Notes: generated by a model from the letters alone, not told the origin. DNA of 64,000 nt from an uncultured Rhodospirillaceae bacterium (GCA_964390005.1 CAYMGM010000003.1:14271-78270); one strand, 5' to 3'. Shown: positions 8,162-27,543, numbered from the stretch's first letter. Made by a program: numbers and translations.

Positions 8162-11100
8162 ATGCGGAGAGACGAAGGAACAGGGCGTATTTTCTATGCG
8201 CCGACGGATTTGGTGACATATCTTGAATGTCCCTTTGCCACGTTGTTCGATCTTCAACAAACGCTTCACCCCATCAAACTTGCCAAGAGCGAAGACGATA
8301 GCGCGAAGCTTCTTGAACAAAAGGGGCTGGAACACGAACGGCACTATCTTGAACAGCTTCGGCGCGAGGACCTCTCAGTCGTCGAGATCCCGTCGAATAT
8401 TTCCATTCCTCGACGGATCGAGATGACGCGTGCGGCGCTGAAGGCAGGTCCTGATGTGATTTATCAAGCGGCGCTTGGCGACGAGGTTTGGACAGGGTTT
8501 GCCGATTTTCTTTTGAAAACAGACCGGCCTTCGGGGCTGGGGGCGTTCAGCTATGAAGTTGCCGACACGAAACTCGCCCTTTCGCCAAGGCCGGAGTTTG
8601 TCGTTCAGCTTTTTGTCTATTGCGAGCTTTTAGCCAAGGAGCAGGATCTCGTTCCACGCGATCTGCACATTGTCTTGGGCGACAAGAGCAAGGTTTCTTT
8701 GCGCCTCGACGATTTTCGCTATTATCAGAAACTGGCGCAGGAGCGGTTTCTCTCTTTCGTTGAAAAAGGACATATGCCGCAGCCGGGCGAACCTTGCGCC
8801 CATTGTGACAAGTGCCGTTGGTTGAGTCTCTGCGAAGAGGAATGGGAGCGCACGGAACATCTTTCTTTTGTCGCGAATATTCGGGGCGAGCAGATCAAGA
8901 AACTCCGCCGCGCCGGGATCAACAGCATGCGCGATCTTGCAGCCCTGCCGGAGGGGCAGTCCGTTCCAAAAATGGCGCCTGAAACGCTGGCGACATTACG
9001 TGAGCAAGCACGTCTTCAGATCGCCAAAAAGGATGATGGCGAGAATCGCTGTGTTCTTTTGCCGTTTGCCCTGCATAAGGGACTTGCGCGTCTCCCTAAG
9101 CCCAATGAGGGCGATCTTTTCTTCGATATGGAGGGCGATCCGTATTACGACAATCCCCGCCTTGAATATCTCTTTGGCTTTGTTCTTTTGAATGAGCAAA
9201 AAGAGGACGTGTTCAAACCGTTTTGGGCGCATGATCGCGCGGCAGAAAAGAAGGCGTTTGAGGACGTGATGGATTTCATCATGGCGCGGCTTGAAGCCTA
9301 TCCCGACGCCTATATCTATCATTATGCGGCTTATGAAGAGACGGCGCTCAAGAATCTTGCCATGTATCACGGCACGCGCGAGGCCGAGGTCGATCATCTT
9401 TTGCGCAATCGCAAGCTTGTCGATCTTTACAAAGTTGTGCATGAGGGCATCCGCGTTTCCGAACCGCGCTACTCGATCAAAAATCTTGAGCATTTCTATG
9501 CGGAAAAGCGCGGCGGCGAGGTCAAGACAGCGGGCGACAGCATCGTTATGTACGAAAAATGGCGCGTGTTACAGGACGATACCATCCTTCAGGAAATAGC
9601 CGATTACAACGAGTTCGATTGCCGTTCGACCCTGCAATGCCGGGATTGGCTGCTAACCCTCAGACCGGAGGAGATGGATTGGTTTGCGCCTTACACAGAC
9701 GATGCGGAGGCGCGGGAGAACGAGGCAAAGCGTCGAGAAGCAGAAGCGGCGACGGCACAGCTTGCCGCGAACCTGACAAACAGCGTTTCGGAACAGGAAG
9801 CAGCATGGCGCGGTCTTTTAGGGCAGCTCTTGACCTTTCACCGACGTGAAGCAAAGCCGGGATGGTGGGCCTTCTTCACGCGGCGCGATCTAACGGACAA
9901 GGAGCTTATCGACGACGCGGAATGCCTTGGAAAATGTGAACGCGATATATCAGCGCAACCCTATAAACTCGGCCCACGTGACAGGTCTCTGGTTTACGAA
10001 TACAGGTTTCCGCCCCAAGACACAAAAATGCGAGAGGAGTATGATCCGGTCAATGCCTTCACCGGCAAGCGGATCGGTAAGATCGTTGGCCTTGATCGAA
10101 AAGGCGGCAAGGTTGCCCTTAAAATCGGAGACAAGCAGGCAAACCCGCCCGATCTTCTTTCGCTTATCCCGCAGAAACCGATTGAAAATAACGATATTCG
10201 TGGGGCCATCGGACGCTATGCCGAGGCTGTTGCAAGCGGAAGCGTCTCGCGTTACGCGGCCATTACGAGCATCCTGCGCCGTGATTTGCCTCGCCTTTCG
10301 GGGAGGGCTGAGGGGGCAAGCATACTTGGGCAAGGGGATGACACAACGTCGGCCTGTATCGATGCGGTCGGACGCCTCGACAACAGCCATTTGCTGATCC
10401 AAGGTCCGCCCGGAACGGGGAAGACCTATACCTCGTCTCATGCGATTGTTGCCCTTTTGAAGGCTGGAAAACGTGTCGGCGTTGCCTCGAATGCGCATAA
10501 GGCGATCAACAATTTGTTGGAGGCTGTTGAGAAGGAAGCCGAAAAACAGAACGTCAGATTCCGAGGCGTCAAAAAATGCACATATGACGATCATGCGCTT
10601 GCCAGCCGAGGGTTTATCGAGAACACGACAGACCTTAAACAGGCCGAAAGCGGCGGCTATAGCCTTGTCGCAGGCACGGCGTGGCTCTTTTCGCGCGTAG
10701 CGTTTGATCAAACGCTAGATTATCTCTTCGTTGACGAGGCAGGACAAGTCAGCCTCGCCAATGTCGTCGCAATGGGAACGGCGGCGCGCAATATCGTGCT
10801 TGTCGGCGATCAGATGCAGCTTGCTCAGCCAATCCAAGGCGCCCATCCGGGGCAATCCGGCCTTTCGGCTTTGGAATATCTTTTAGGGGACGCGGCAACG
10901 GTTCCGCCCGAACGCGGTATTTTTCTTGCCACGACGCGCCGCATGCATCCAGCCTTGTGCGGTTTTATCTCTGCCGCCGTTTATGAGGGCAAACTGCTTC
11001 CCGAACTCGACAATGCGCGCCGCCATCTTGTGGTGAACGGGCCGGAGGAAGATGAGGCTATTGTTCCGGCAGGCATTCGGTTTATCGAGGTTGAGCACGA

Positions 11101-11584
11101 AGGATGTTCGCAAAAAAGCGAAGAGGAAGTGGAACGTTTAAAAGCCACCTATGATCGCTTGCTTGGCATGAAGTGGGTGGATGAGACCGACGAGGAGCAT
11201 GTGATCGGCAAGGAAGATATCCTTGTCGTCTCGCCCTACAACATGCAGGTCAACGAGCTGCAAAAAGCGCTTGGCCCCGACGCGCGTGTCGGCACGGTGG
11301 ATCGTTTTCAGGGGCAGGAAGCGCCCGTTGTTTTGATCTCGATGGCGACATCGTCAGGCGAGGAGCTTCCGCGCGATATCGAGTTCCTTTTCAGCCGCAA
11401 CCGCCTGAACGTGGCCATCAGTCGCGCAAAATGTTTGGCCGTCCTTTACGCCAACCCGCGTCTCCTCGAAATCCCCTGCAGCACCATCGACCAGATGCGC
11501 CTTGTCAATACGCTTTGCTGGGTTCGTGCTTATGCGCATGCGTTCGGTGGGGGAGAAGTGGTAATTAGCGCGGCAGTGGCTTGA
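8162..11584 (+). CDS. Nuclease-helicase fusion: Cas4/RecB-like PD-(D/E)xK nuclease with Fe-S Cys cluster, TM0106-type RNaseH-like domain, C-terminal Upf1/Dna2-like SF1 helicase (Nhi-like defence candidate)
   Basis: 1140 aa; 'EVADTKL' D-x-K, 'C..CAHCDKCRWLSLC' 4-Cys cluster, 'FFDMEGDPYYD' DxE, Walker A 'LIQGPPGTGKTYT', 'VDEAGQ' motif II, 'VDRFQGQE' motif V/VI. Confidence 0.75.
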   Translation: MRRDEGTGRIFYAPTDLVTYLECPFATLFDLQQTLHPIKLAKSEDDSAKLLEQKGLEHERHYLEQLRREDLSVVEIPSNISIPRRIEMTRAALKAGPDVIYQAALGDEVWTGFADFLLKTDRPSGLGAFSYEVADTKLALSPRPEFVVQLFVYCELLAKEQDLVPRDLHIVLGDKSKVSLRLDDFRYYQKLAQERFLSFVEKGHMPQPGEPCAHCDKCRWLSLCEEEWERTEHLSFVANIRGEQIKKLRRAGINSMRDLAALPEGQSVPKMAPETLATLREQARLQIAKKDDGENRCVLLPFALHKGLARLPKPNEGDLFFDMEGDPYYDNPRLEYLFGFVLLNEQKEDVFKPFWAHDRAAEKKAFEDVMDFIMARLEAYPDAYIYHYAAYEETALKNLAMYHGTREAEVDHLLRNRKLVDLYKVVHEGIRVSEPRYSIKNLEHFYAEKRGGEVKTAGDSIVMYEKWRVLQDDTILQEIADYNEFDCRSTLQCRDWLLTLRPEEMDWFAPYTDDAEARENEAKRREAEAATAQLAANLTNSVSEQEAAWRGLLGQLLTFHRREAKPGWWAFFTRRDLTDKELIDDAECLGKCERDISAQPYKLGPRDRSLVYEYRFPPQDTKMREEYDPVNAFTGKRIGKIVGLDRKGGKVALKIGDKQANPPDLLSLIPQKPIENNDIRGAIGRYAEAVASGSVSRYAAITSILRRDLPRLSGRAEGASILGQGDDTTSACIDAVGRLDNSHLLIQGPPGTGKTYTSSHAIVALLKAGKRVGVASNAHKAINNLLEAVEKEAEKQNVRFRGVKKCTYDDHALASRGFIENTTDLKQAESGGYSLVAGTAWLFSRVAFDQTLDYLFVDEAGQVSLANVVAMGTAARNIVLVGDQMQLAQPIQGAHPGQSGLSALEYLLGDAATVPPERGIFLATTRRMHPALCGFISAAVYEGKLLPELDNARRHLVVNGPEEDEAIVPAGIRFIEVEHEGCSQKSEEEVERLKATYDRLLGMKWVDETDEEHVIGKEDILVVSPYNMQVNELQKALGPDARVGTVDRFQGQEAPVVLISMATSSGEELPRDIEFLFSRNRLNVAISRAKCLAVLYANPRLLEIPCSTIDQMRLVNTLCWVRAYAHAFGGGEVVISAAVA

Positions 11585-11624
11585 AGGGCAAAGGATTTTA
11601 GACGTTTGTTATCAGGAAAGACTC

Positions 11625-12503
11625 TCAGTTTTTTTGTGCTTCACTCGAAGAAGAAAGGTATTTTTGGAAGAAGCCATCAGGAGCATCGTGTTCTGCACAA
11701 CAATAGGCGCGCTCCGCAGCTTGTGAAACAACTTCGCGGTTAACCCGTTTTACAATATCGCTGGGGGCGGATGCCAACAGAAGCCTCTTCGCTTTTGAGT
11801 CAGGCTTGAAGGCGAAAAAGATATGGCGTGGCGTTAGCGGTAGAACAATTACACAATTCGGATCATTTAGGCCCGTCGTAAATAGACAAGGTCTATCTGA
11901 TGTTAAAATACGGTTAGACGCATGGAATGCGTCCATCAAGAACCAATCCATCGACAAAATATCGCTTAAAACGTTTGAATTCGAAATGATTTTAGGAAGT
12001 TGTTTAACGCCAATATTTTCGATAAGCGCAGGGTGGTTTATTTCTACCCAGTCTTTCAGACTTTCGGGTACTTCCCCATTTAATGAGGTTGAGTCTGGTG
12101 AGCTCTTGCCTTCAAGATAATCTGAAAATTGATCGCGGAGTGTTGTTTTGATTCTTGTTACAGTTTCCGGATTTCTGATTTTCATGCTCGAGATAAATTG
12201 AGCCCATCGGATCTTTTCTTTTTTGGTTAAAGGGGCGCCCGAGATAAACTTTGCTTTTATTTCCGCTCCTGCATTATCGATCGGTTTAAAAAACCTCGTT
12301 TCAATCTCAGATCTATCTGAGGCATGAAATGCTTTTGAATATGCATATAGAAAATCCCTATACCCCGTTCCTTTGGGGGCTTTCTGTCTTTTTGAAATTA
12401 TCCCGTCAAAATTTCTAATTTCCCAAAGCTCATGGGTTCCATGTGCTACCCATGATTTCAGGTAAAACTGCGGAACAAAGTGGTGCTTCGTTGAAGTTGC
12501 CAT
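11625..12503 (-). CDS. DUF4238-like protein (defence-island associated family); true start at internal Met
   Basis: Starts MATSTKHHFVPQFYLKSW, which is the HxVPxFYL signature I associate with DUF4238; AGGA RBS 9 nt upstream; the long N-terminal extension in the ORF track is rejected. Confidence 0.6.
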   Translation of the reverse strand: MATSTKHHFVPQFYLKSWVAHGTHELWEIRNFDGIISKRQKAPKGTGYRDFLYAYSKAFHASDRSEIETRFFKPIDNAGAEIKAKFISGAPLTKKEKIRWAQFISSMKIRNPETVTRIKTTLRDQFSDYLEGKSSPDSTSLNGEVPESLKDWVEINHPALIENIGVKQLPKIISNSNVLSDILSMDWFLMDAFHASNRILTSDRPCLFTTGLNDPNCVIVLPLTPRHIFFAFKPDSKAKRLLLASAPSDIVKRVNREVVSQAAERAYCCAEHDAPDGFFQKYLSSSSEAQKN

Positions 12504-12550
12504 TATAATTTTTCCTGCTTGATATCGATTTGAAGCATGATGTCTTTTGG

Positions 12551-13540
12551 TTACGGTAGTCCATCCCATTTCCGCTGTGCGCCAGTCACCATCTTTCGGA
12601 GCGCCGACGGTTTTATCACTTCGACCTGATCGCCCCACATGTAGAGGTGCCATGTCATTTCCAAGAGCCCGCCCGCGCGGAAACGCACGATGAGCGCGCC
12701 ATCCTTTTTCTCTTCCGTTTTCTGGTTTGGATGAAAGACAAACTCTCTCGCGGCTTGTGCCGCCTTGGGCGTGAACTTCCAGACGATGTCTTGTGGTTTC
12801 TCCATCCATACGCCGAAGGATTGGTCGGCATAGGCCTGAAGATCGAACGTAGGATCGCGATGAAAGCCGTCTTTCGTGACGGTAACGCTTTCAATTTGCG
12901 AGAGGATGAAATGATACCGCGCGGCCTCGCGGCCTTTTTCGGTTCCGCCGCCGACTAGATAGTGCCGGTGGCCATAGAGAAAGCCATAGGGCGCAACGCG
13001 CTTTATCTCGGCTTGCGGTTTGCCCTTTGCATGATAGAGAATCTCGACAATCTTGCAGGCTTTGATCGCTTCGCGAAGCGCATGCAGGTGCTCGGCATTC
13101 AATTTAGGCCGGGGGCCGGGGCGCGTGGCAAGACCTTCGGCTTCGATCAGTGCTTCAAGGTCAGGTTCAACCCGGCGCGAGACGTCGCATTTCTGAAGCG
13201 TTTTGATCTTTCCGCAAAGCGACCGCAGAGCCTTCGCTTGCAAACCAAGCCCGCGTCCAGCAAAGGCCTTCGTCGCCATATCAAGGCTGGCCAGCTCGTC
13301 CGGCGTCAAGGCTAAATGCCGCCCGTTGGTCGAGGACGGGATCCGCCAACGTTTGATCCTGTTTTCATCCGTTGTCTCATCGACCTGCGGATAAACGCGC
13401 ACCACGGCATCGCGCATGCGCATGGCCGTGCGGCGGGAGACGTCAAACATATCGATGATTTCCGTGAGGGTGACACCTTCGGCATTCGACTGCATGGCAA
13501 ACGCGAGGTTCAGTAGGTCTTCGGCTTTTTCGAAACGCAT
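12551..13540 (-). CDS. WYL-domain transcriptional regulator (HTH-WYL-WCX; BrxR/CapW-like)
   Basis: 'GVTLTEIIDMFDVSRRTAMR' wHTH; WYL domain 'PYGFLYGHRHYLVGG'; C-terminal WCX-like 'WHLYMWGDQVEVIKP'. Start taken at MRFEKAEDLL. Confidence 0.75.
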   Translation of the reverse strand: MRFEKAEDLLNLAFAMQSNAEGVTLTEIIDMFDVSRRTAMRMRDAVVRVYPQVDETTDENRIKRWRIPSSTNGRHLALTPDELASLDMATKAFAGRGLGLQAKALRSLCGKIKTLQKCDVSRRVEPDLEALIEAEGLATRPGPRPKLNAEHLHALREAIKACKIVEILYHAKGKPQAEIKRVAPYGFLYGHRHYLVGGGTEKGREAARYHFILSQIESVTVTKDGFHRDPTFDLQAYADQSFGVWMEKPQDIVWKFTPKAAQAAREFVFHPNQKTEEKKDGALIVRFRAGGLLEMTWHLYMWGDQVEVIKPSALRKMVTGAQRKWDGLP

Positions 13541-13826
13541 CGACAATCCCCAACAAAAACACTGGGGAAGAGCCTGCCACAAGTGATCCGGTTGGCCAAG
13601 AGCGCATGTGACCGGAATTGTCATGTCCGGGTGCTAGAATAGAAAGCGTTAACAGAGTGGTGTGCCATGAAGCCATTAAAACTTGTCCCGTCAAAAGGTC
13701 TTGAAATGCTTTTGAGTGCATTCGGCATTCTGGGGACTATGGAGGCGAGAAAGACCAAAAAAGCCAAATACACGAACTATATCCTTGTCTATGGCCCCGA
13801 TAATAAGGTCCAAACTGTTGAAACCA

Positions 13827-13860
13827 TAAAATAACGGGATCAACCAATTATAAAATAACG
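13827..13860 (+). promoter_or_regulatory. 11-bp direct repeat (ataaaataacg x2, 12-bp spacer) in the divergent WYL / SNF2-operon intergenic region; candidate operator
   Basis: Seen directly; lies ~95 bp upstream of the SNF2 start. Confidence 0.25.
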
Positions 13861-13954
13861 ATTATTTGTCTTAATGGGCTGTCCTTGGCTGTTCTTTTGT
13901 TTTAATATTTCGCCACAAAATCGGGCAGGCTAAGCGAATCAGAGATCGGAAGAA

Positions 13955-16891
13955 ATGAGGGCGCAAAACGAACAAATCGAGACAGGCGGAGGCGGAAACA
14001 AAACACCCATATCCCCTTATCATGCCAAATATTTTGCGCACGAGATTTCGACCAAGAAATCCGCCGCTGCCGTTGATCGCCTGACAACCTCGCTTTTCGA
14101 TGCCGCCGTTGATTTAAACCCCCATCAGATTGAGGCCGCCCTTTTTGCCCTTCGCTCCCCCTTATCCAAGGGCGTTATGCTGGCCGATGAAGTCGGTCTC
14201 GGCAAAACCATTGAGGCGGGTATCCTGCTTTGCCAAATGTGGGCCGAGCATAAGCGGCGCTTGCTTGTCATTTGCCCAGCCGTTTTGCGCCGCCAATGGT
14301 CGATAGAGCTTGAGGAAAAGTTCAACCTGCCGACGCTTGTGCTGGAAGGCAGTAATTATGCCGAGCGCAGCCAAGCAGGCGATCCCTTCGATTTCAAAGG
14401 CGTCGTCATTATTTCCTACCAGTTCGCGAACCGCTGCGCCGACGAGCTTAAGGCCGGGTTATGGCATTTGGTCGTGATCGACGAAGCCCACAAACTGCGA
14501 AATCTGTTCAAAAAAGACAACAAGATGGGCCGCACGATCCAAGCGGCCTTGGCCGATCACAAAAAGGTCCTTCTTACGGCCACACCTTTACAAAATTCGC
14601 TCATGGAGCTTTACGGCCTCGCCTCGCTGATAGACGAGCGCATCTTTGGCGGGATTGATACGTTCCGCACGGCCTATGTCAACGGGACGCCCAATATAGA
14701 TGATCTCAAAGACCGCCTTGCGCCCTTTGTCCAACGCACCCTTCGGCGACAGGTTTTGGAATATATCCGCTATACACGCCGCGAAGCGGTTACCCAGCCT
14801 TTCAGGCTTTTGGGTGACGAACAAAAACTCTATGACGAAGTCTCTGACTTCCTGTTGCAGCAAGATACCTACGCCATCCCATGGGCGCAAAGAAAGCTGG
14901 TCGTTCTTATTGTTCGCAAGCTTCTGGCGTCTTCCTCTTATGCCCTGATTGGAACGTTAGAGACGATCAAGGCGCGGCTGGAACGTATGCGGGAAACGCG
15001 GCGCGAGGAAAAGTTGAACCTGCGCACCGCCTTTGTCGCCGGGCAAGACATTGATATCGAATATGCCGAAGCAGGAGAGGAGGAAGGGCCCCAGCCCACG
15101 CCCCAGCGCAAGGAAATCGACCTCGAAAAGTTGGCCTATGAAATCGAACAAATCGAAGGTTTCATCGCCCTTGCGCGCTCGATCCGGATTGAAACAAAAG
15201 CCAAAGCGCTTCTCACAGCCCTGCAAACCGGCTTTGCCCGTATGGGGGAACTTGGCGGCGCGCGCAAAGCCCTTGTCTTCACGGAATCCAGTCGCACGCA
15301 GCGTTGCCTGAAGGACTATCTGGAAGACAACGGCTATCGCGGCAAGATCGTGACATTCAACGGCCAGAACACAGACGATCTTGCGAAGGATATTTACGCC
15401 CATTGGCTCAAAAAGAACGCCGAAACAGGCCGCGCCACGGGATCGAAAAACGTCGATATGCGCATGGCCTTGGTCGATTTCTTCCGCGACCGTGCCGAAG
15501 TGATGATCGCGACCGAGGCCGCCGCCGAAGGCATCAACCTTCAGTTCTGTTCGCTTATCGTCAATTACGACCTGCCTTGGAACCCGCAACGCATCGAACA
15601 GCGCATTGGCCGCTGCCATCGTTACGGGCAAAAGCACGATGTCGTCGTCATCAACTTCCTGAACCAAGACAATCTTGCCGATCAACGCATCTATGAATTG
15701 CTGAAAGAGAAGTTCCAGCTTTTCGACGGCGTCTTTGGCGCATCAGACGAGGTTCTAGGCCGCGTCGAATCCGGCATCGATTTCGAAAAGCGTGTGCTAG
15801 AGATTTTCGAGACCTGCCGCAAACCGGAAGAAATTGAACAAGCCTTCGTCGATCTTCAGGCCGAGATGGAAGAGCCAATCCAAAGCCGCATCGCCGAAAC
15901 GCGCACTCTGTTGTTCGAGCATTTCGACGAAGATGTCACCAAACACCTGAAGTTCAGCATGGAGGCGACAAAACAGCGCCTCGATACCGTCACGCACCAT
16001 TTCTGGGAGCTGACAAAGTTCGTCTATGCAGACCAGTTTTTCTTCAACGACGAAAAGCTGATCTTCGGCGACGATGCCGCCTTCATCGCGCGCGGCGAAA
16101 GGCCGGAAGGGGGCGAACATACGCCCATCTTCCACTATCTGGAAACGCGGCAGGGCGAGGTCAAAACAGGTCTGTCCGGCCAGCCCTATCGCATGGCGGG
16201 CCCGATGGGCGAGGCCGCCCTTCAAAAAGGGCGCGCGATGGAGACGCCACCCGCCGCGCTGGCCTTTGATTTTGCCTCATACCCCCACAAAATCGCCCTT
16301 TTGGAAGAACAAAGCGGCAAGCGCGGCTGGCTTTGGTGCGACAAGCTGACAATCAAAACGTTCGAGGAAACGGAAAGCCTGATCTTCACCGTCTGCGACG
16401 AAAATGGTGCGATCCTGCCGCCCGCGTTCGGCGAAAAGCTTTTCCTTCTATCGGCCACCAACGAAGGGGCCTTGGCCCCATGCCCCCACCAAAACGCGGT
16501 CGAAGCCGCGCGCGCGTCCAGCATCGAAGCCAGTCTGAAAGAATCGGAAATCAGCAACCACAGCTATTTCGAGGAAGAGCTGGATAAGCTCGACCGCTGG
16601 GCCGAGGATCTGAAAACGGGCCTAGAGATGGAGCTGAAACAGCTCGACCGCGACATCCGCGAGGCTGCCCGTCAATCGAAACAGAGGGTCAGCCTTGCCG
16701 AAAAGCTGGCTTTTCAGAAGCAAAAAGCGGCCCTCGAAAAACGCCGCTCCCAAAAACGCCACGAGCTTTTCCAAAGCCAAGACAAGATTGACGCAAGGCG
16801 CGAAGAGCTTATTAATCAATTAGAACGGCAACTGCAGGATAGCAGGCATGAGGTGGTGCCGCTGTTTTGCGTGGGATGGAGGGTTTCGTGA
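13955..16891 (+). CDS. SNF2/RAD54-family helicase (DISARM DrmD-like)
   Basis: 978 aa; motif I 'ADEVGLGKTIEAG', 'VVIDEAHKLRN', 'LLTATPLQNSLMELY', C-lobe 'IATEAAAEGINLQ...NYDLPWNPQRIEQRIGRCHRYGQ'. Confidence 0.85.
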   Translation: MRAQNEQIETGGGGNKTPISPYHAKYFAHEISTKKSAAAVDRLTTSLFDAAVDLNPHQIEAALFALRSPLSKGVMLADEVGLGKTIEAGILLCQMWAEHKRRLLVICPAVLRRQWSIELEEKFNLPTLVLEGSNYAERSQAGDPFDFKGVVIISYQFANRCADELKAGLWHLVVIDEAHKLRNLFKKDNKMGRTIQAALADHKKVLLTATPLQNSLMELYGLASLIDERIFGGIDTFRTAYVNGTPNIDDLKDRLAPFVQRTLRRQVLEYIRYTRREAVTQPFRLLGDEQKLYDEVSDFLLQQDTYAIPWAQRKLVVLIVRKLLASSSYALIGTLETIKARLERMRETRREEKLNLRTAFVAGQDIDIEYAEAGEEEGPQPTPQRKEIDLEKLAYEIEQIEGFIALARSIRIETKAKALLTALQTGFARMGELGGARKALVFTESSRTQRCLKDYLEDNGYRGKIVTFNGQNTDDLAKDIYAHWLKKNAETGRATGSKNVDMRMALVDFFRDRAEVMIATEAAAEGINLQFCSLIVNYDLPWNPQRIEQRIGRCHRYGQKHDVVVINFLNQDNLADQRIYELLKEKFQLFDGVFGASDEVLGRVESGIDFEKRVLEIFETCRKPEEIEQAFVDLQAEMEEPIQSRIAETRTLLFEHFDEDVTKHLKFSMEATKQRLDTVTHHFWELTKFVYADQFFFNDEKLIFGDDAAFIARGERPEGGEHTPIFHYLETRQGEVKTGLSGQPYRMAGPMGEAALQKGRAMETPPAALAFDFASYPHKIALLEEQSGKRGWLWCDKLTIKTFEETESLIFTVCDENGAILPPAFGEKLFLLSATNEGALAPCPHQNAVEAARASSIEASLKESEISNHSYFEEELDKLDRWAEDLKTGLEMELKQLDRDIREAARQSKQRVSLAEKLAFQKQKAALEKRRSQKRHELFQSQDKIDARREELINQLERQLQDSRHEVVPLFCVGWRVS

Positions 16892-17718
16892 GGATTGTTT
16901 GGAAAACCATAATTGATTTTTGGTTGGCCTCACTAGACGTAGTGACTATCTGGGTTCAGCCTGTGCTGGTTGGGGTGAGCGTTCTTGCAAGTGCTTTTTT
17001 AACTTATGATTTTTCTCATGTTTACTCGTATGTTCCAAGTTGGAAGCATCAGATTGATCTACTCAGATCGGCCCTTCCCATTACGCTAGTGTTGACCCAA
17101 GTCTTCCTGTTGGCTGTGTCCATTTTTCAGGGAATTAGGCAATGCTCAATTCGCAAGTTGAAAAAACAAGTGGATGAATACAGAGAAAAAATAAATATCA
17201 TTGCAAGCAATGTTGAAACGCTTGTTGATGGTATATTGTTGAGATTGGCGGAAAAGCTAAAATTGGACAAAGGAGATCCATCGCGGCTAACAATTTATAT
17301 CCACAACAGCAATGGACACTTTATTTCCTTCGGACGGTACTCCCCAGACCCATCTCTGAATGAAAAGGGAAGGAGCCTGCTGCCTGACAACGCGGGGTGT
17401 ATATCTCAGGCGTGGAAGAGTGATTGGTGTTATGAGGGGAATTTGAGTTCTAAAGATTGCCGCCAAAAATACAAAGTTGAGCAGTCCGTTGTTGATGGAT
17501 TGAGAATGAAATCAAGGTTCTATGCCGTTAAAAGAATTGACTCATCAAACAAGCGACCTTTGGCTGTCGTTGTTTTTGAATCTGTCACCGCAAACAAGTT
17601 TGACGAACAAAAAATCAGAAACCTTCTGAACGGAGAAGAAGCATATCTAGCAGAGATAATCGATTGTCTGAAAGAGCATATTCCTAACCCGCAAGATGCG
17701 CAGAAATGGGGGTTCTAA
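16876..17718 (+). CDS. AT-rich membrane protein: 2-3 N-terminal TM helices plus cytoplasmic domain (PanT-like toxin candidate)
   Basis: ATG overlaps the last codons of the SNF2 gene; hydrophobic stretches 'VQPVLVGVSVLASAFL' and 'ALPITLVLTQVFLLAVSIF'; markedly lower GC than neighbours. Confidence 0.6.
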   Translation: MEGFVRIVWKTIIDFWLASLDVVTIWVQPVLVGVSVLASAFLTYDFSHVYSYVPSWKHQIDLLRSALPITLVLTQVFLLAVSIFQGIRQCSIRKLKKQVDEYREKINIIASNVETLVDGILLRLAEKLKLDKGDPSRLTIYIHNSNGHFISFGRYSPDPSLNEKGRSLLPDNAGCISQAWKSDWCYEGNLSSKDCRQKYKVEQSVVDGLRMKSRFYAVKRIDSSNKRPLAVVVFESVTANKFDEQKIRNLLNGEEAYLAEIIDCLKEHIPNPQDAQKWGF

Positions 17719-18206
17719 TGACCGCACTTAAAGACATCATTGCTTATGTGTGTAAGACCTATCCTTCGAACTTGCAGGATGAGTTGTCAAATGCACGTGT
17801 CACCAAAATGATTTACCTTGCTGATTGGAGGCAAGCGATCGAACATGGGCGCCAGATTTCAGATATTGACTGGTTCTTCGACAATTACGGGCCTTACGTT
17901 GATGATGTGAGGAAAGAAGTTGCTGAAAACAATTCGATTTTTGACCTTCAGCATGTTCAGAATATGTACGGGCAGCCAAAGAACCTGATTAAGCTTAAGG
18001 ATAAGAACTATGCGCCGTCCCTTTCTGATGATCAAAAGAAGTCAATTGATCATGTTATTGAAATGACTAAAAAAATGTATTGGGACACATTCATCAAGCT
18101 CGTTTATTCAACATATCCCATAACTTCTTCAGAAAGGTATTCGCATCTCAATTTGCTTGAGAAGGCTTCTGAATATAAGGCTCAGAAAGAAGAAAAAGCA
18201 CCATGA
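17706..18206 (+). CDS. Panacea-domain (DUF4065, SocA/PanA-like) protein, putative antitoxin
   Basis: 'TKMIYLADWRQAIEHGRQISDIDWFFDNYGPYVDDV' matches the DUF4065 core (LqKLlYfa.gw......pLf...feAw.yGPV). Alternative start ATG 17718 overlaps upstream TAA (TAATG). Stop overlaps mod ATG (ATGA). Confidence 0.6.
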   Translation: MGVLMTALKDIIAYVCKTYPSNLQDELSNARVTKMIYLADWRQAIEHGRQISDIDWFFDNYGPYVDDVRKEVAENNSIFDLQHVQNMYGQPKNLIKLKDKNYAPSLSDDQKKSIDHVIEMTKKMYWDTFIKLVYSTYPITSSERYSHLNLLEKASEYKAQKEEKAP

Positions 18207-19888
18207 CCAAAAAGCAAAAGCTGGAATTGACGTGGATTGGGAAGGATCAGAGGCCTCGGTTGGAGCCTCGAATTTTGGTGGAGGATGATGCGCGGTCGTA
18301 TCATGCGGACAAACGCGTTACGGATCATGATCTATTCGACAATAAGCTGATCTTTGGCGACAATTTGCTCGCGCTCAAGGCGCTGGAGCAGGAGTATGCG
18401 GGGAAGGTCAAATGCGTCTTTATCGATCCGCCCTATAACACCGGATCGGCCTTCACGCATTACGACGACGGGCTTGAGCATTCCATCTGGCTCGGCCTCA
18501 TGCGCGACCGCTTGGAGATCCTGCGCAACCTCCTCTCCGAAGACGGCTCAATCTGGATCACCATCGACGACAACGAATGCCATTACCTCAAGGTGCTTTG
18601 CGATGAGGTGTTTGGAAGGGGAAACTTTTTGTGCGATATCGCTTGGGAGAAGCGATATTCTCCTCCACCGGACACAAAGGACTTTGGCTATGTACACGAT
18701 CATATTTTGGTCTACAGAAAGACACCAGCTTTTCGACGCAACTTATTGCCCTTAACGGAAGACCAATCTGGTCGATATAAAAATCCAGATAACGATCCCC
18801 GCGGCCCTTGGAAAGCTATGGATTACACTTGTCGATATTCTGCCGACGAACGCCCTAATCTCAATTATCCGATTATACAGCCCCACACGAAGAAAGAGAT
18901 ATGGCCAAACAAAACGCGAGTCTGGGCAATGTCGCGGGAAGTTCATGAAAAGAACGAACGAGAGAATAGAATTTGGTGGGGAACAAAAGGCACAAATAAT
19001 GTTCCTGCACTAAAAAACTTTTTCTCGGATATCAATCAGGGCATGATGCCAATGTCATTATGGAAACATACTTTGGCAGGCCATAATCAAGATGCGATGA
19101 AAGAAATGTTATCTCTCTTTGGGCGAGATGTTTTTTCAACACCAAAACCCGAGCGCTTGATACATACGGTTCTTCACATAGCCACCAATCCCAACGACCT
19201 CGTCCTCGACTCCTTCGCGGGTTCTGGCACCACCGGCGCTGTTGCTCATAAGATGGGGCGGCGGTGGATTATGATTGAGTTGGGGGAGCATTGTCATACG
19301 CATATCATTCCGCGCCTCAAGAAAGTGATCGATGGCGAGGATAAGGGCGGGATTACCGAGGCGGTGGCTTGGAAAGGCGGCGGGGGCTTTCGGTATTATG
19401 CGCTGGCGCCGTCTCTCATCACAATGGACAAATACGGTCAAGCGGTCATCAACAAAGACTATGACCCCGCCATGCTGACGCAGGCCATGTGCAAGCTGAT
19501 GGGCTTTGCCTATGCGCCGTCTGAGACCGTTTATTGGCAGCAAGGTCATTCAACCGAGACCGACTTTATCTATGTGACGACGCAAACGCTGGATCAGGCG
19601 CAGCTCGCCGCTCTTTCGGAAGAAGTGGGGGACAAGCAAAGCCTCCTCATCTGCTGCTCGGCCTTTCGCGGCAAGGCAGACGGTTTCGAAAACCTAACCC
19701 TCAAAAAAATCCCTCGCGCGGTGTTGGCCAAATGCGAATGGGGCCACGACGACTACAGCCTCAACGTCCAAAACCTGCCTCTCGCCGAGGAGGACCAAGT
19801 GGACATCCCCACGCCGCGCAAACAAAAAGCCAAAGCGCGTGCCAAGGCAAAAGCGGCGGAACCTTCTTTGTTTGGAGATGTGGAATGA
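18203..19888 (+). CDS. mod: Type III restriction-modification Mod subunit (beta-class N6-adenine DNA methyltransferase)
   Basis: 561 aa; 'FIDPPYN' motif IV precedes 'DSFAGSGTTGAVA' motif I (beta permutation); central variable TRD. Confidence 0.85.
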   Translation: MTKKQKLELTWIGKDQRPRLEPRILVEDDARSYHADKRVTDHDLFDNKLIFGDNLLALKALEQEYAGKVKCVFIDPPYNTGSAFTHYDDGLEHSIWLGLMRDRLEILRNLLSEDGSIWITIDDNECHYLKVLCDEVFGRGNFLCDIAWEKRYSPPPDTKDFGYVHDHILVYRKTPAFRRNLLPLTEDQSGRYKNPDNDPRGPWKAMDYTCRYSADERPNLNYPIIQPHTKKEIWPNKTRVWAMSREVHEKNERENRIWWGTKGTNNVPALKNFFSDINQGMMPMSLWKHTLAGHNQDAMKEMLSLFGRDVFSTPKPERLIHTVLHIATNPNDLVLDSFAGSGTTGAVAHKMGRRWIMIELGEHCHTHIIPRLKKVIDGEDKGGITEAVAWKGGGGFRYYALAPSLITMDKYGQAVINKDYDPAMLTQAMCKLMGFAYAPSETVYWQQGHSTETDFIYVTTQTLDQAQLAALSEEVGDKQSLLICCSAFRGKADGFENLTLKKIPRAVLAKCEWGHDDYSLNVQNLPLAEEDQVDIPTPRKQKAKARAKAKAAEPSLFGDVE

Positions 19889-20415
19889 GCAATCTTATTG
19901 ATGGGCTAGCTTTGGTCGTTGCGCTGGGATCAGCTGTGGTTTCTTGTTTATCTGCGGGAGCTGCAAAGGCCTCCGCAGACGCTGCAAAAATCTCTGCGGA
20001 GGAAACGAAGAAACAACGAAAGATTAGCCAATATGTGACATTGTCCCCCCATTTTTTTGCTGTAAGCCAGATTCTTTCAGCCCTAAGCGATGGAAAGGAA
20101 ACACCGAAGCGTCTTCTTGCGGCAAGAGACTCTCTTGTCTTTTTAAAGAAAGCTTTACCAAAGGACGAAGAGCTAATTGCCGTTGTCAATGAGATCGAAT
20201 ACAGATTTGAAGAGACGATCTCCGATGGCATTACAACCTTTAGAAGTCATTTAGTAAATTACCCAGCAAGGGAGACTGAGGATAACTTTGCTCAATTCAA
20301 TCTCGATCATAACGTCGATAAGGATCCAACTAAAAAAAGATTTAAAATTGCGCAACTAAAGGAAATGCTGTCGATGATTGAAGGAAGATATATTTCTTTG
20401 GATGACACCCCATGA
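19885..20415 (+). CDS. Small membrane-anchored protein of unknown function inserted between mod and res
   Basis: ATGA overlaps with both the mod stop and the res start; N-terminal TM helix 'LIDGLALVVALGSAVVSCLSAGAA'; AT-rich. Confidence 0.55.
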   Translation: MSNLIDGLALVVALGSAVVSCLSAGAAKASADAAKISAEETKKQRKISQYVTLSPHFFAVSQILSALSDGKETPKRLLAARDSLVFLKKALPKDEELIAVVNEIEYRFEETISDGITTFRSHLVNYPARETEDNFAQFNLDHNVDKDPTKKRFKIAQLKEMLSMIEGRYISLDDTP

Positions 20416-23066
20416 ACCGTTTCCTCAACGCCATCTCAAACCGCCTCTCTCTCCGCACGCCGCAGCGGGAGTCTCTTGAAATCCTTGCGCGCGTGGCGGA
20501 CGTCGTGCCGCTCAACAAAACGCGCGATGTGGCTGAGGCGCTGCGGGTCATTCACGAGGATTATCCGAGCGTTGAGGATTTTGAGCGCGATTTTCCTTCG
20601 CTCTGTTTTGCGCTTGCCACGGGCGTTGGCAAAACGCGGTTGATGGGGGCGTTTATCGCTTACTTGCATCTTGCGAAGGGCATGAAGCATTTCTTCGTGC
20701 TGGCCCCAAACCTCACCATCTATAACAAGCTCATTGCCGATTTCACGCCAAACACGCCGAAATATGTGTTTCAGGGGATTGCGGAGCTGGCGATCACGCC
20801 GCCGGAAATCATCACGGGCGACAATTACGAAAGCGGGCGCGGCATTCGCGGCACCGACCTTTTGGGCCAAGCCGACAACATTCACGTCAACATCTTCAAC
20901 ATCTCGAAAATCAATACCGAGACGCGGGGCGGGGCCTCGCCGCGCATCAAGCGGCTTTCGGAATACTTAGGCGAAAGCTATTTCGAATATCTGTCCAAGC
21001 TCGACGATCTTGTTTTGCTGATGGATGAATCGCACCGTTACCGCGCCTCGGCGGGCATTCGGGCGCTGAATGAACTGAACCCCGTTCTTGGGCTTGAACT
21101 GACCGCGACGCCGCAGATTGAAAACGGTGCAAAGGCCGTGCCGTTCAAGAACGTGATCTATAGCTATCCGCTCTACAAGGCGATGGAAGACGGCTATGTG
21201 AAGGAACCGGCGGTTGCCACGCGTGAAAACTTCGATCCATCTAAGTTCACGGAAGACGAGCTGGAGAAAATCAAGCTCGAAGACGCTATTTGCATTCATG
21301 AAAACGTCAAGGCCGAGCTGAAGGTCTATGCCGATAACAACAATCGGCCTTTGGTCAAGCCCTTTATCCTCGTCGTCGCGCAGGACACGACGCATGCCGA
21401 AAATCTGATGGCTTTGATTAAATCGGATGCCTTTTTCGAGGGGCGCTATCGGGATCGCGTGATTACGGTGCATTCGAACCAGCGCGGCGAGGAAAAGGAC
21501 GAGACGATCCAGAAACTTCTCTCGGTCGAAGACCCTGCCGAGCCGACCGAGATTGTTATTCACGTCAATATGCTGAAAGAAGGATGGGACGTCACCAACC
21601 TTTACACGATTGTGCCTTTGCGTGCGGCGAACTCGCGCACGCTTGTTGAACAATCGATTGGGCGCGGGCTTCGTTTGCCTTATGGAAGGCGCACAGGTGT
21701 TGCCGCCGTAGATCGTTTGACCATTGTGGCACACGACCGGTTTGATGAGATTATCCGCGAGGCGAACGATCAACACTCGATCATCCGCGCAGGCGTTGTG
21801 ATTGGCAAAGACATTGCCGCCAAGCCGAAGCAAGCCGTTGAGATTAAATCGAACATTGAATTGATCGTGACCGGCGAAGCGCCGGTGAAACCGGAACAAA
21901 AGCCTTTGTTCACAGAAGAAGAGCGTCCGATTGCCAAGGCCTCGTTTGAGGCGATACGGGATTTTGAGCGTCTGCCAAGCTCGCGCGATCTTCTGAAGCC
22001 GGAAACGCAACAGAAAATCGTCGAGCGCGTGATTGAGAAAATCACGCCCGCGCAGGGAACGCTTGGCGGGATCATTGAAAAGCCCAATGTTGAGAACATC
22101 GTCCGGCGTCAGATTGAAGCCTATGTCCAGAACACCATCGACATTCCGCGTGTGACCGTGACGCCGATTGGCGCGGATAGCTATGCGTTCACGGACTTCG
22201 ATCTTGATACAAAAAACCTGCCGCGCCTTCAGCCTGTCGAGGATAAAATCCTGATCCAGAATTTGCGCACTTATGAGCGCGAGCAAATGGCCAAGGGCGA
22301 GGCCATCGGCCAAGAAGCGCGACTGGAGGACTATATCGTCGCCGTTCTGATCGATAAGGATGACATTTCCTATGATGACCACGCCGACCTGCTCTACAAA
22401 CTGGCGGGGCAAATGGTGGCGTTTATTTTTTCCTATTTGGGAGATACCGAGAAGACGAAAAACGTCATTCAGTTTTATCGCACAAAGCTGGCCGATTTGA
22501 TCCATGCGCAGATGGATGCGCATGTGAAGCTTGGCTACACGGACTTTCAGGCTTCCGTTACGCGCGGGTTTGAGCAGCCGAAAATGGGTGCGGTAACGAT
22601 TGATGCGGGCGAGAAAGTCAGAAACTTCCGGCAGACGTTGGCCAATGTTTCCGACATTCGCGGCATGGTGTTCGAAGGTTTTTCAAAATGCCTCTATCCG
22701 CAGCAGAAGTTTGATTCCGACACGGAACGCCAGATGGCTATCTTGCTCGAAGACGAAAAGAGCGTTCTGAAATGGTTCAAGCCTCTGCGCAATGACGTTA
22801 AAATCTACACGAATGAAAATGACGGTTATGAGCCTGATTTTGTCGTGGAAACTTCTGGCGAGAAGCTTCTTATCGAGACCAAACGTGCGGACGAAGTCGA
22901 AAGCGATGCGGTCCAGCAGAAAGCTCGCGCCGCACTCAAATGGTGCGAGGCGGCCACAAAACATGAAACGGAGAATGGAGGCAAACCGTGGCGGTATCTT
23001 CTGGTGCCCCACGATGCCGCTAAGCCGAATGCGACGCTTGGTGGATTATTGGTTCAGTACCGCTAG
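20412..23066 (+). CDS. res: Type III restriction enzyme Res subunit (SF2 helicase plus C-terminal PD-(D/E)xK nuclease)
   Basis: 884 aa; Walker A 'LATGVGKTRLMG', 'LLMDESHRY' DEAH-like, C-terminal 'EPDFVVE...LLIETKRADE'. Confidence 0.85.
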   Translation: MNRFLNAISNRLSLRTPQRESLEILARVADVVPLNKTRDVAEALRVIHEDYPSVEDFERDFPSLCFALATGVGKTRLMGAFIAYLHLAKGMKHFFVLAPNLTIYNKLIADFTPNTPKYVFQGIAELAITPPEIITGDNYESGRGIRGTDLLGQADNIHVNIFNISKINTETRGGASPRIKRLSEYLGESYFEYLSKLDDLVLLMDESHRYRASAGIRALNELNPVLGLELTATPQIENGAKAVPFKNVIYSYPLYKAMEDGYVKEPAVATRENFDPSKFTEDELEKIKLEDAICIHENVKAELKVYADNNNRPLVKPFILVVAQDTTHAENLMALIKSDAFFEGRYRDRVITVHSNQRGEEKDETIQKLLSVEDPAEPTEIVIHVNMLKEGWDVTNLYTIVPLRAANSRTLVEQSIGRGLRLPYGRRTGVAAVDRLTIVAHDRFDEIIREANDQHSIIRAGVVIGKDIAAKPKQAVEIKSNIELIVTGEAPVKPEQKPLFTEEERPIAKASFEAIRDFERLPSSRDLLKPETQQKIVERVIEKITPAQGTLGGIIEKPNVENIVRRQIEAYVQNTIDIPRVTVTPIGADSYAFTDFDLDTKNLPRLQPVEDKILIQNLRTYEREQMAKGEAIGQEARLEDYIVAVLIDKDDISYDDHADLLYKLAGQMVAFIFSYLGDTEKTKNVIQFYRTKLADLIHAQMDAHVKLGYTDFQASVTRGFEQPKMGAVTIDAGEKVRNFRQTLANVSDIRGMVFEGFSKCLYPQQKFDSDTERQMAILLEDEKSVLKWFKPLRNDVKIYTNENDGYEPDFVVETSGEKLLIETKRADEVESDAVQQKARAALKWCEAATKHETENGGKPWRYLLVPHDAAKPNATLGGLLVQYR

Positions 23067-23094
23067 TGGAGGCAAAATCCATTTTTTAGCTATT

Positions 23095-23364
23095 TTAGTC
23101 CGTTTTCATAAGATGTTGGGGGCCATATTCTCGTATCCATTTGGCACGGGTTAGGTGTGACGCCCAACATTGGCGTGCAACATCAGGGGCGAGACTTGGA
23201 TCGCGATGTAGCACGATGCGGGAGACCTCGCGCCAGTCGGCGCCTTCCGCTTCGGCGTCGAGAATGCGCGCATAGGTGATGAAGTGCGCCTCATCATAGG
23301 GCGTAATGCTCTCTGCGGAGGGCGCTTCGTCGGCGACATCGGGATCGAGGATCGTCTTGGGCAT
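23095..23364 (-). CDS. Small conserved ICE-associated hypothetical protein (divergent partner of DUF2285 gene)
   Basis: 89 aa ORF, high GC, divergent from 23681. Confidence 0.45.
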   Translation of the reverse strand: MPKTILDPDVADEAPSAESITPYDEAHFITYARILDAEAEGADWREVSRIVLHRDPSLAPDVARQCWASHLTRAKWIREYGPQHLMKTD

Positions 23365-23469
23365 AGGGTAGTTTTGACCTTATCTCGTGGGGCTGTCCAT
23401 CCGGTTTCGCGGGCCGCTTTGGGAACGTTGAGGGCATTCTATGTCGGGAAGGCTTCAAAAATCTTAAGA

Positions 23470-23530
23470 AACTAGGAATATATTCCTTGACAAAATGGGA
23501 TAATTCCCATATTGACATTCCTACGACGTA
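23470..23530 (+). promoter_or_regulatory. Putative promoter with flanking palindromes upstream of DUF2285 gene
   Basis: 12-bp perfect palindrome ggaatatattcc, TTGACA hexamers, and tggga-taat-tccca inverted repeat. Confidence 0.3.
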
Positions 23531-23598
23531 CTGCGCCCATCTGCCCCCGGTTTTGCGGACTTGGCGATGATGAGGACGGGAGTGACTTGTTTTTGCGA

Positions 23599-23622
23599 GA
23601 CGGCTTTTGGCCGTCTTTTTTT
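23599..23622 (+). terminator. Terminator-like hairpin in the 5' leader of the DUF2285 gene (attenuator or sRNA terminator candidate)
   Basis: gacggc-ttttg-gccgtc followed by ttttttt. Confidence 0.35.
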
Positions 23623-23680
23623 GTGGCCGAAAGCCTCCTGCGTCGGAACCTGATTTCCTTTTTTTCGTTGGAGAAGATTC

Positions 23681-24520
23681 ATGCCCGAGACCGCTGTGTC
23701 CGGCCTGCGGCCGTGCGTCGACTGGCGCAATGCCGAAGATTATCGCCATCTTCTGGATTATGACCGCGCCGGATGGGCTGGCGAATGGCTCAGGCGCAAT
23801 CCGGCTTTTGTTGCCGATGTCCATCGTGCGCCCCATTATTCGGATGCGTTCCGCTTCGGCTCTGATCTGGATGTTGCCATCATAGATGGAGGGAAAGATA
23901 CATCGTTAGCGCGTTGGGGATTGCACGGTATTTGCCCAGGGACTGAGCCGCTTTTCTTCTGGCGTCCGGAGGTCAATGCGCAGGTTCTGACGCTTGAAGC
24001 CAAAAAGGCAACGAACGAAGCCGAGGGGCTCGACCTGCGTCAATGTACTTTGTTTAAGGCGGCGTTTCGCGGCGCGGATCAAGATACGCATCTTCTGTTT
24101 GGGGACGGCGTCCGGACGCTGCAGGTCGTCGTCAAGGGCGATGTTTCCTTTGAAAGCCCCATGAACTTTCGGTGCGCCTTGTCCGGTTGGAGCGAGTTTG
24201 AGACCAAGCCATTGAGCTTACGTCGGTTGTGTTGTCTTTACAGGCTGGGACGTCTTTCCAGTTCCCTTTATCCCAAGGAGCAACGGGCCCATCGCTGGGT
24301 CGAAATGATCCGTGCATGGGACGGCGTTCAGGCCGGGGCCAAGCAACGCGATATTGCCATCGCTATTTATGGCGATCGCGCGGTGCGTGAAGATTGGGAT
24401 TCAGGCTATCGCACCCGTGTGCAAAGATTGATCCGTTCATCGGAACGGATGGTCGGCGGCGGTTATCTGGACCTTCTGCGTAGCGGCAGCGGAGACACGG
24501 CGCACAAAGGCGCTTTATGA
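23681..24520 (+). CDS. DUF2285-family protein (ICE leading-region regulator-like)
   Basis: 279 aa; matches my recollection of the DUF2285 proteins that open alphaproteobacterial ICE backbones. Confidence 0.6.
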   Translation: MPETAVSGLRPCVDWRNAEDYRHLLDYDRAGWAGEWLRRNPAFVADVHRAPHYSDAFRFGSDLDVAIIDGGKDTSLARWGLHGICPGTEPLFFWRPEVNAQVLTLEAKKATNEAEGLDLRQCTLFKAAFRGADQDTHLLFGDGVRTLQVVVKGDVSFESPMNFRCALSGWSEFETKPLSLRRLCCLYRLGRLSSSLYPKEQRAHRWVEMIRAWDGVQAGAKQRDIAIAIYGDRAVREDWDSGYRTRVQRLIRSSERMVGGGYLDLLRSGSGDTAHKGAL

Positions 24521-27114: not shown

Positions 27115-27182
27115 CGCGCTTTTCCTTTTCCATTCAACGGCTCGGCCTTGTGCCGGGCCGTTTCGTTTCAAGGAGATTTCCG

Positions 27183-27539: not shown

Positions 27540-27543
27540 AGCC

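Follow-up and report, generated by a model that had tools for sequence, protein, structure and literature searches.

Why should an operon that encodes a helicase and a restriction–modification (R-M) system carry, between the helicase gene and the methyltransferase gene, a small membrane protein and a Panacea-domain protein? The question is raised by a contig of an uncultured Rhodospirillaceae bacterium (GCA_964390005.1 CAYMGM010000003.1:14271-78270), a stretch of 64,000 nucleotides that is referred to here as the window, all positions being counted from its first letter. The original prediction took the two genes for a laterally inserted toxin–antitoxin (TA) pair of the PanT/PanA kind, the upstream gene encoding the toxin and the downstream gene the Panacea antitoxin. 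The best overall explanation of the evidence set out below is that positions 16888-18206 form a type II TA cassette of the toxFtsL:PanA kind, carried by the operon as exchangeable cargo and having a suicide-type or stabilising role; we give this reading as a whole a probability of about 0.72.

A Panacea gene and its constant partner

The longest open reading frame (ORF) of the downstream gene, 17706-18206, matches Pfam PF13274 (SocA_Panacea) over residues 33-135 of 166 with an E-value of 9.3e-13; the score, 49.5 bits, lies well above the gathering threshold of 25.7, which bears out the DUF4065/Panacea core that had been recognised in it. Pfam finds no further domain in the protein, and in particular no N-terminal one. 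More than 336 homologues at 50-67% identity were collected and PF13274 is present in all of them. The PADLOC model PDC-M19A also matches the protein weakly (1e-5); this reflects the shared domain alone, and an identity with PDC-M19A was rejected.

The upstream gene has no match in Pfam, NCBIfam or PADLOC and no significant match in PHROGs. A word-indexed search returned only 12 close homologues, at 45-55% identity, and a profile built from these 12 and run against 1.84 billion cluster representatives returned 1310 matches at E<=1e-3 and 678 at E<=1e-10, nearly all of them 260-300 residues long. The toxin candidate is a member of a wide family that lacks a Pfam model. Translated searches (tblastn) with the protein gave no match in phage genomes and a single, distant match in plasmids, on a plasmid of Vibrio harveyi. 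Several Vibrio homologues (P0318-P0320) are labelled ‘YbfB/YjiJ family MFS transporter’ in NCBI and UniRef; they are about 300 residues long, have two transmembrane (TM) segments and are encoded upstream of a Panacea gene, and the label looks like a mis-annotation.

The two genes keep company. In 12 of 12 distinct loci, among them loci of Legionella pneumophila, Mesorhizobium, Rhizobium gallicum, V. harveyi and an Asticcacaulis metagenome-assembled genome (MAG), the toxin gene stands directly upstream of the Panacea gene. Four of these loci (the window, L001, L007 and L008/9) are embedded at the same junction between a helicase gene and a type III-like methyltransferase (Mod) gene, and the other eight are stand-alone copies on plasmids or mobile elements (Table 1). 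The upstream genes of four of the stand-alone copies match the toxin-family profile at 3e-84 (L. pneumophila, L025), 2e-63 (Mesorhizobium, L026), 1e-63 (R. gallicum, L027) and 1e-21 (V. harveyi, L013). The Asticcacaulis locus was the only one to come from a scan of genome contigs with the 12-sequence alignment, the patterns derived from that alignment being too narrow.

A coupled pair inside a type III-like restriction operon

The pair is flanked by a DrmD-like SNF2-family helicase on one side and by the Mod and Res genes of a type III-like R-M system on the other, and its placement inside an R-M operon, proposed earlier, stands. The helicase matches Pfam SNF2-rel_dom (2e-33) and Helicase_C (5.5e-19) and PADLOC DrmD (1.5e-207), Mod matches N6_N4_Mtase (3.7e-47) and PADLOC MTase_III (4.5e-218), and Res, the final gene, matches ResIII (2.5e-21), RE_endonuc (1e-4) and PADLOC REase_III (4.8e-229). 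Mod and Res lie together in one operon, as they should in a type III R-M system. With its DrmD-like helicase followed by an adenine methyltransferase, the operon resembles class 1 DISARM (DrmD-DrmMI-DrmA-DrmB-DrmC), but class 1 DISARM was rejected: the helicase scores 691 bits against NCBIfam DISARM_DrmD_b, under the cut-off of 950, and no DrmA, DrmB or DrmC is present in 13955-23066. Because the partners of the helicase are a type III Mod and Res and DrmABC are absent, the host operon is an SNF2-associated type III-like R-M system and not DISARM. A megablast search of 13000-24000 against plasmids gave no match.

The two genes had been given starts at 16876 and 17706, and both are better placed further downstream. 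The likelier start of the toxin candidate is GTG 16888, which follows a GGAGG at 16878-16882, overlaps the helicase stop codon (GTGA) and yields a protein of 276 residues that agrees with database entry P0001; that of the Panacea gene is ATG 17718, which overlaps the toxin stop codon by 1 nucleotide (TAATG) and yields a protein of 162 residues that agrees with entry P0013. The Panacea stop codon in turn overlaps the Mod start (ATGA). Since stop and start codons overlap throughout, the junctions of the pair are all translationally coupled, with zero intergenic space; an integron-type cassette was rejected because there is no intergenic room for an attC site. A scan for promoters and terminators inside the operon found nothing above shuffle expectation, by which an internal promoter is neither shown nor excluded. 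A terminator-like hairpin lies beyond Res, at 23597-23617.

The pair differs from its neighbours in composition, as had been observed. Guanine-plus-cytosine (GC) content is 0.42 in the toxin gene and 0.40 in the Panacea gene (0.44 at third codon positions, GC3), against 0.55, 0.51 and 0.53 in the helicase, Mod and Res genes (GC3 0.60-0.66).

Kinship with toxFtsL:PanA

The comparison with known PanT families that the original prediction called for leads to a cluster that was predicted by Kurata 2022 (PMC8832971, Dataset S1) under the name T13. All T13 rows list the toxin before the antitoxin, and their PanA is marked ‘noNTD’; one member is annotated as ‘GAF domain-containing’, and T13 was left untested in that study (PMC8832971). 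Its members include proteins of Gelidibacter mesophilus (WP_027127282.1), Psychrosphaera saromensis (WP_105052395.1) and Photobacterium aquimaris (WP_105030053.1) (PMC8832971). The G. mesophilus protein was subsequently renamed toxFtsL_D9 (NetFlax D9) and validated by Ernits 2023 (PMC10440598); it has 281 residues and the annotation ‘GAF; FtsL; transmembrane’. On plates the protein proved toxic, and its partner PanA, a stand-alone Panacea protein (WP_027127283.1), neutralises it directly. Its action is slow: cells filament, divisome assembly and FtsZ localisation are lost, and lysis is delayed, without membrane depolarisation (PMC10440598). In a limited search of the literature the name ‘toxFtsL’ was confined to the NetFlax paper and the corresponding preprint.

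The window toxin matches the P. saromensis member of T13 in BLASTP at 2e-18 (28% identity over 199 residues). Profile-to-sequence alignment with hhalign extends the match to 258 columns (probability 98.7%, E 4.4e-16), as far as a common C-terminal Gly-Phe. The representative of the 90% cluster that holds the P. aquimaris member is matched at 9e-18. Gene order, toxin then antitoxin, and a Panacea protein devoid of an N-terminal domain agree with every T13 row, and, like toxFtsL_D9:PanA, the window pair consists of a toxin of about 280 residues, built from TM helix(es), an extended alpha-helical stretch and a GAF domain, whose gene stands upstream of and overlaps a stand-alone Panacea gene. Judged from sequence, then, the window pair is a diverged copy of a described kind of TA system, toxFtsL with a Panacea antitoxin, and the predicted TA identity with a membrane-anchored upstream partner gains from homology to T13/D9, one member of which has been validated as a TA system. 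Differences from these relatives are that no promoter region can be recognised for the window copy itself, which sits in a six-gene restriction operon, whereas the T13 loci were defined as comprising two or three genes, and that the window toxin has two predicted TM segments and no DivIC/FtsL signal in its sequence.

This kinship bears on how the toxin might act. The membrane-targeting PanTs, E. coli PanT T3, Bartonella PanT T12/D11 and the Helicobacter PanT, depolarise the membrane or make it permeable and are either small peptides or coiled-coil proteins (Kurata 2022). The window toxin is like them a TM protein, of a group in which Panacea neutralises by forming a direct complex, but it differs in its size of 276 residues and in its globular GAF domain. 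A membrane-disrupting toxin was first expected, but the sole validated relative blocks division, with delayed lysis and no depolarisation.

Architecture of the toxin candidate

Two hydrophobic segments, residues 22-40 and 63-81, can be recognised in the toxin candidate, and a basic stretch follows the second. The positive-inside rule predicts both termini, and with them the C-terminal domain, to be cytoplasmic. In an AlphaFold2 model (12 homologues, pLDDT 78) helix continues unbroken up to residue 127, the long helix itself spanning residues 54-127, and is followed by an alpha/beta domain. Two TM helices and a long helix precede a GAF-fold domain at the C-terminus, and this is the architecture by which toxFtsL_D9 and T13 are characterised (TM helix or helices plus GAF domain in about 280 residues). 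The description of the protein as having two to three TM helices plus a cytoplasmic domain is thereby kept in part: two helices are seen, the third is dropped, and the domain has a GAF fold.

In an alignment of 128 family members (A2) three residues are invariant, in window numbering R137, G174 and E235, and six more are at least 90% conserved (Y141, F149, R154, R166, W180 and M211). The presence of three arginines and an acidic residue within the GAF fold hints at a ligand pocket or at an interface with PanA.

A variable cargo slot between helicase and methyltransferase

How did the pair come to stand where it does? The closest relative of the window operon, L023, was found by a single-protein scan of metagenomes with the helicase C-terminus. 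The scan returned two loci, and the second, L024, was rejected as a related operon on the ground that it is a different system, an SNF2 gene beside an MmeI-like gene. L023 and the window share 77% amino-acid identity in the helicase, 92% in Mod (82.5% at the nucleotide level) and 80% in Res, and their DNA homology covers window positions 14007-16884, 18202-19884 and 20411-23015. It ends just before the helicase stop codon and restarts at the Mod ATG (16884/18202). What lies in between in L023 is a 724-residue Old-family nuclease (Pfam AAA_15 1.9e-42, OLD-like TOPRIM 6.4e-16; PADLOC Old 2.3e-97) that replaces the pair and whose gene, too, overlaps the Mod start at its end (ATGA).

Nine further orthologous operons, found through the helicase on plasmids (39-48% identity), hold other cargo at this junction or none (Table 1), the slot being empty in 4 of the 10 operons found by helicase. 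Read across these operons, the helicase–Mod junction is a variable cargo slot. The toxin and helicase phylogenies also disagree. The helicases of L001 and L007 are 84% identical and their toxins only 49%, the L007 toxin being 65% identical to that of a stand-alone copy. Because L023 has Old at the same slot and other relatives have other cargo or nothing, lateral acquisition of the pair as a cassette is well supported. The lateral insertion first suggested on the basis of composition is thus upheld on other and stronger grounds, the codon-precise breaks in homology with L023 being better evidence than GC content.

A second slot appears to lie between Mod and Res. In the window this junction holds a small gene (19885..20415) with ATGA overlaps at both ends, a GC content of about 0.44 and a product that matches nothing in Pfam or PADLOC. 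The same junction is without a gene in L001 and L008 and is occupied in L023 by a different small TM protein, which shows no significant similarity to the window protein; in an operon on Rhizobium sp. NLR16a plasmid p7 (L017) it carries a restriction-like gene. As L017 has a GmrSD_N and HNH gene there, the Mod–Res junction also takes defence cargo.

Genomic surroundings

Upstream of the operon, and divergent from it, is a gene for an HTH-WYL-WCX protein (Pfam WCX 5.6e-13, WYL 1.6e-6; PADLOC WYL 5.6e-25). This protein is probably a regulator of the restriction operon, a role suggested by that of the BrxR/CapW-type WYL regulators. The neighbouring gene encodes a DUF4238 protein (Pfam 6.6e-28), and proteins of this kind are reported among the candidates for defence systems that consist of a single gene. 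The longest ORFs of the DUF4238 and WYL genes overlap by about 260 nucleotides, and for this reason the true start of the DUF4238 gene is probably internal. Adjoining these defence genes is a nuclease–helicase fusion of 1140 residues, and L023 has a shorter, nuclease-only relative of it (25% identity) upstream of its own operon.

The genes downstream (23681-33248) are of a set typical of integrative conjugative elements and plasmids, and on that account a mobile element probably carries the defence locus. The neighbourhood as a whole is a defence island on an apparent conjugative element.

Table 1. Coordinates and content of features in the window, and of related loci
Feature	Locus	Position	Strand	Remarks
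TM0106-family RecB-like nuclease/RNase_H_2 fused to SF1 helicase (AAA_11/AAA_12)	Window	8162-11584	+	1140 residues; adjoins defence genes
DUF4238 protein	Window	11625-12809	-	Divergently upstream of the operon
HTH-WYL-WCX regulator (probable)	Window	12551..13624	-	Divergent
SNF2-family helicase, DrmD-like	Window	13955..16891	+	978 residues; operon gene 1; left border of slot 1
Toxin candidate, toxFtsL-family PanT	Window	16888..17718	+	276 residues from GTG 16888; alternative ATG 16876 gives 280
Antitoxin candidate, stand-alone Panacea/DUF4065 (PanA)	Window	17718..18206	+	162 residues from ATG 17718; alternative ATG 17706 gives 166
Type III-like DNA methyltransferase (Mod)	Window	18203..19888	+	561 residues; right border of slot 1
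Small AT-rich gene between Mod and Res	Window	19885..20415	+	176 residues; one N-terminal hydrophobic helix
Type III restriction subunit (Res)	Window	20412..23066	+	Final operon gene
RovC-like DNA-binding protein, ParB_N protein, methyltransferase with Strawberry-notch-like (Sno-like) helicase, DUF7146-Toprim protein	Window	23681-33248		ParB_N protein 755 residues; methyltransferase–helicase 1472 residues
Old nuclease	L023	9058-11232		In helicase–Mod slot
IS256, AbiD, 69-residue ORF	L014 (Salmonella)	9400-11770		In helicase–Mod slot; AbiD by PADLOC, 6.6e-67
AIPR/AbiU-like gene, HTH gene, 62-residue ORF, PIN/VapC gene	L019 (Deinococcus)	9883-12581		In helicase–Mod slot
PLD-like ORF	L020 (Roseomonas)	9811-10899		In helicase–Mod slot; missing from RefSeq annotation
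Uncharacterised 169-residue protein	Blastomonas			In helicase–Mod slot
Uncharacterised 527-residue protein	Sphingopyxis			In helicase–Mod slot
Empty helicase–Mod slot	Klebsiella, Cupriavidus, Ketogulonicigenium, Rhizobium			
DUF262/GmrSD_N and HNH gene, type IV restriction-like	L017 (Rhizobium sp. NLR16a plasmid p7)	11917-13188		Between Mod and Res
Stand-alone pair	L004			MobA/HipBA contig
Stand-alone pair	L010			Adjoins DUF7380/HNH genes
Stand-alone pair	L011			
Stand-alone pair	L012 (Asticcacaulis MAG)			Adjoins DnaB-like (helicase) gene
Stand-alone pair	L013 (V. harveyi)			Conjugative plasmid; near Hok/Gef
Stand-alone pair	L025 (L. pneumophila)			Adjoins ISL3 transposase
Stand-alone pair	L026 (Mesorhizobium)			Adjoins MobA/TraD/integrase genes
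Stand-alone pair	L027 (R. gallicum)			

What the pair may do

If the pair is a toxFtsL:PanA cassette, its toxin would be an inner-membrane protein in which two TM helices anchor a coiled-coil-like stalk and a GAF-fold domain that faces the cytoplasm. Free toxin would, if it behaves as the G. mesophilus relative does, block assembly of the divisome and bring about filamentation and then delayed lysis with no depolarisation, and the Panacea protein would neutralise it by direct binding, as its counterpart in the validated system does and as Panacea biology would lead one to expect. Toxicity, the block in division and direct neutralisation are all attributed to the window proteins by analogy with that relative. 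Having no recognisable promoter of its own and being coupled in translation to the helicase stop on one side and the Mod start on the other, the cassette would be expressed together with the restriction operon. The pair would then serve as a second, suicide-type (abortive) layer of defence and/or as a stabilising element carried along with the R-M system. We regard this role, inferred from the genomic context, as the most likely one, because all occupants of the slot that could be identified are suicide or nuclease effectors complete in themselves; the suggestion that the pair acts in addiction or as a backup by abortive infection (Abi) is likewise drawn from its context. A functional coupling to Mod or Res is not required, we would argue, because so many copies stand alone.

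Several observations count against this assignment and explain why our confidence in it is not higher. The window toxin shares no more than 25-28% identity with the T13 members compared, and its link to the validated G. mesophilus protein runs through cluster membership and not through a direct alignment. The Pfam GAF and DivIC models do not match the window toxin itself, and since DivIC matches, weakly, just 5 of 128 family members (best E 7e-5), the FtsL-like feature appears weak; GAF_2 is likewise matched by 5 of 128, and these sparse matches echo the published ‘GAF; FtsL’ annotation. The Panacea protein lacks a DNA-binding domain. The TA criterion of Kurata 2022 leaves out pairs in operons of more than three genes (PMC8832971), a limit that the eight stand-alone loci keep and that the four embedded loci exceed, the window, which is inside a longer operon, among them; the exchange of cassettes seen in L023 argues that the long operon merely houses the module and does not belong to it. 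The composition of the pair, 5-20 GC points below its neighbours in every locus examined, embedded or stand-alone, does not date its arrival either: AT-richness persists in old, diverged copies, so that it is partly a standing property of the cassette and neither a clock nor proof of recent arrival. Finally, E. coli was the one host in which the published work tested toxicity, and a phage-defence assay of toxFtsL:PanA formed no part of it (Ernits 2023; PMC10440598).

One rival places the pair under the control of the R-M system itself, after the model of PrrC and EcoprrI. The toxin would be held latent both by PanA and by an intact SNF2-Mod-Res complex or its expression, and would be freed when a phage anti-restriction factor or shut-off of the host disables the R-M system, to which the pair would be a dedicated backup. 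Abi and HEPN genes embedded in R-M operons are documented and PrrC sets the precedent for such a guard (Anantharaman 2013; PMC3710099). The window shows nesting of this type, in that the pair, apparently promoter-less, lies between helicase and Mod with overlapping stop and start codons, and in relatives the same slot holds the Abi effectors Old, AbiD, AIPR/AbiU-like, PLD and PIN/VapC. Like the type Ic EcoprrI locus (PMC3710099), it has two layers, with a suicide-type effector among R-M genes. PrrC, however, is a single protein kept latent through physical contact with the R-M enzyme, whereas the window effector is accompanied by an antitoxin and is found elsewhere without any R-M system, and the host R-M system differs from EcoprrI in being type III-like with an extra SNF2 helicase. 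The pair is self-contained, most of its loci stand alone without any R-M system, and as cargo it is interchangeable and often absent, which implies no specific protein–protein coupling to R-M; we consider this explanation unlikely. A more general version holds that dedicated slots, helicase–Mod and Mod–Res, capture promoter-less suicide effectors (toxFtsL:PanA, Old, AbiD, AIPR/AbiU-like, PIN/VapC, PLD and GmrSD being those named) as a modular guard like that of PrrC/EcoprrI, that these effectors are wired to R-M in transcription and perhaps in function, and that the pair, with Panacea as the sensor, fires, with division arrest and lysis, when a phage or plasmid disables R-M or shuts off its expression. 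We offer it as an unlikely speculation.

It is conceivable, if improbable, that the pair is purely an addiction module that stabilises the operon or a conjugative element through post-segregational killing, and that it has no part in phage defence. The company kept by stand-alone copies speaks for such a role, since they occur near plasmid-stability TA genes and mobility genes (HipBA with MobA; Hok/Gef on the conjugative Vibrio plasmid; MobA/TraD), as does the resemblance of the ParB_N, Sno-like methylase–helicase and DUF7146-Toprim genes downstream in the window to genes of conjugative elements. The other occupants of the slot, however, are Abi or nuclease effectors and not stability genes. 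An R-M system is moreover addictive by itself, so that an additional TA pair adds little, and classic addiction TAs do not usually combine a toxin-first order with the lack of an autoregulatory DNA-binding domain.

The shape of the toxin invites another comparison, with the class III (T4 T-type) holins, in which case the TM and GAF protein would be a lysis effector that makes timed lesions and Panacea its antiholin. Foldseek does match the model to phage ‘class III holin’ and ‘T holin’ models (E 1.4e-5 to 2.1e-4), the validated relative does cause delayed lysis of cultures, and T4 holin T with its antiholin RI (PDB 6pxe) likewise pairs an N-terminal membrane helix and a GAF-like domain with a small inhibitor that binds it. 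The TM-scores are low, however (0.30-0.41), and any GAF-like fold with an N-terminal helix would match in this way. The soluble domain is predicted to be cytoplasmic here and is periplasmic in holin T, the topologies being opposite; the protein has two TM segments and not one; phage proteins show no sequence similarity to it by tblastn; the Panacea domain is unrelated to RI; and the cells described by Ernits 2023 formed filaments in which FtsZ was no longer localised, with no depolarisation. Membership of the class III holins was rejected, the resemblance being one of fold only, and a holin-like action is very unlikely.

Least tenable of all is the proposal that the GAF membrane protein and the Panacea protein belong to the R-M system as integral subunits, perhaps tethering it to the membrane or sensing a ligand, and form no TA pair: tight translational coupling to both neighbours, the repeated presence of this pair at this junction in four operons that have diverged, and the small ligands that GAF domains often bind, together with the family-wide conservation of R137, Y141, R154, R166, W180 and E235, might suggest as much, but the closest operon relative has Old instead, the slot can be empty, the toxin and helicase phylogenies conflict, most copies adjoin no R-M system and a relative of the pair has been validated as a TA system.

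Implications

The TA family, its Panacea partner, the phenotype of one member and the embedding of suicide effectors in R-M operons are all known already, and a lone new member of a TA family with a single validated representative adds little. What seems to be undescribed, on a limited search of the literature, is the codon-precise slot in SNF2/type III operons and the presence of toxFtsL:PanA among the Abi effectors that occupy it. The swaps at this slot, between Old, AbiD, AIPR with PIN/VapC, PLD and the TA pair, amount to a natural set of isogenic-like operons, and such operons could be used to test whether suicide effectors nested in R-M systems act as a PrrC-like backup and whether Panacea serves as a sensor of phage cues. 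They also place a family of toxins that block cell division in an anti-phage context for the first time, by association only.

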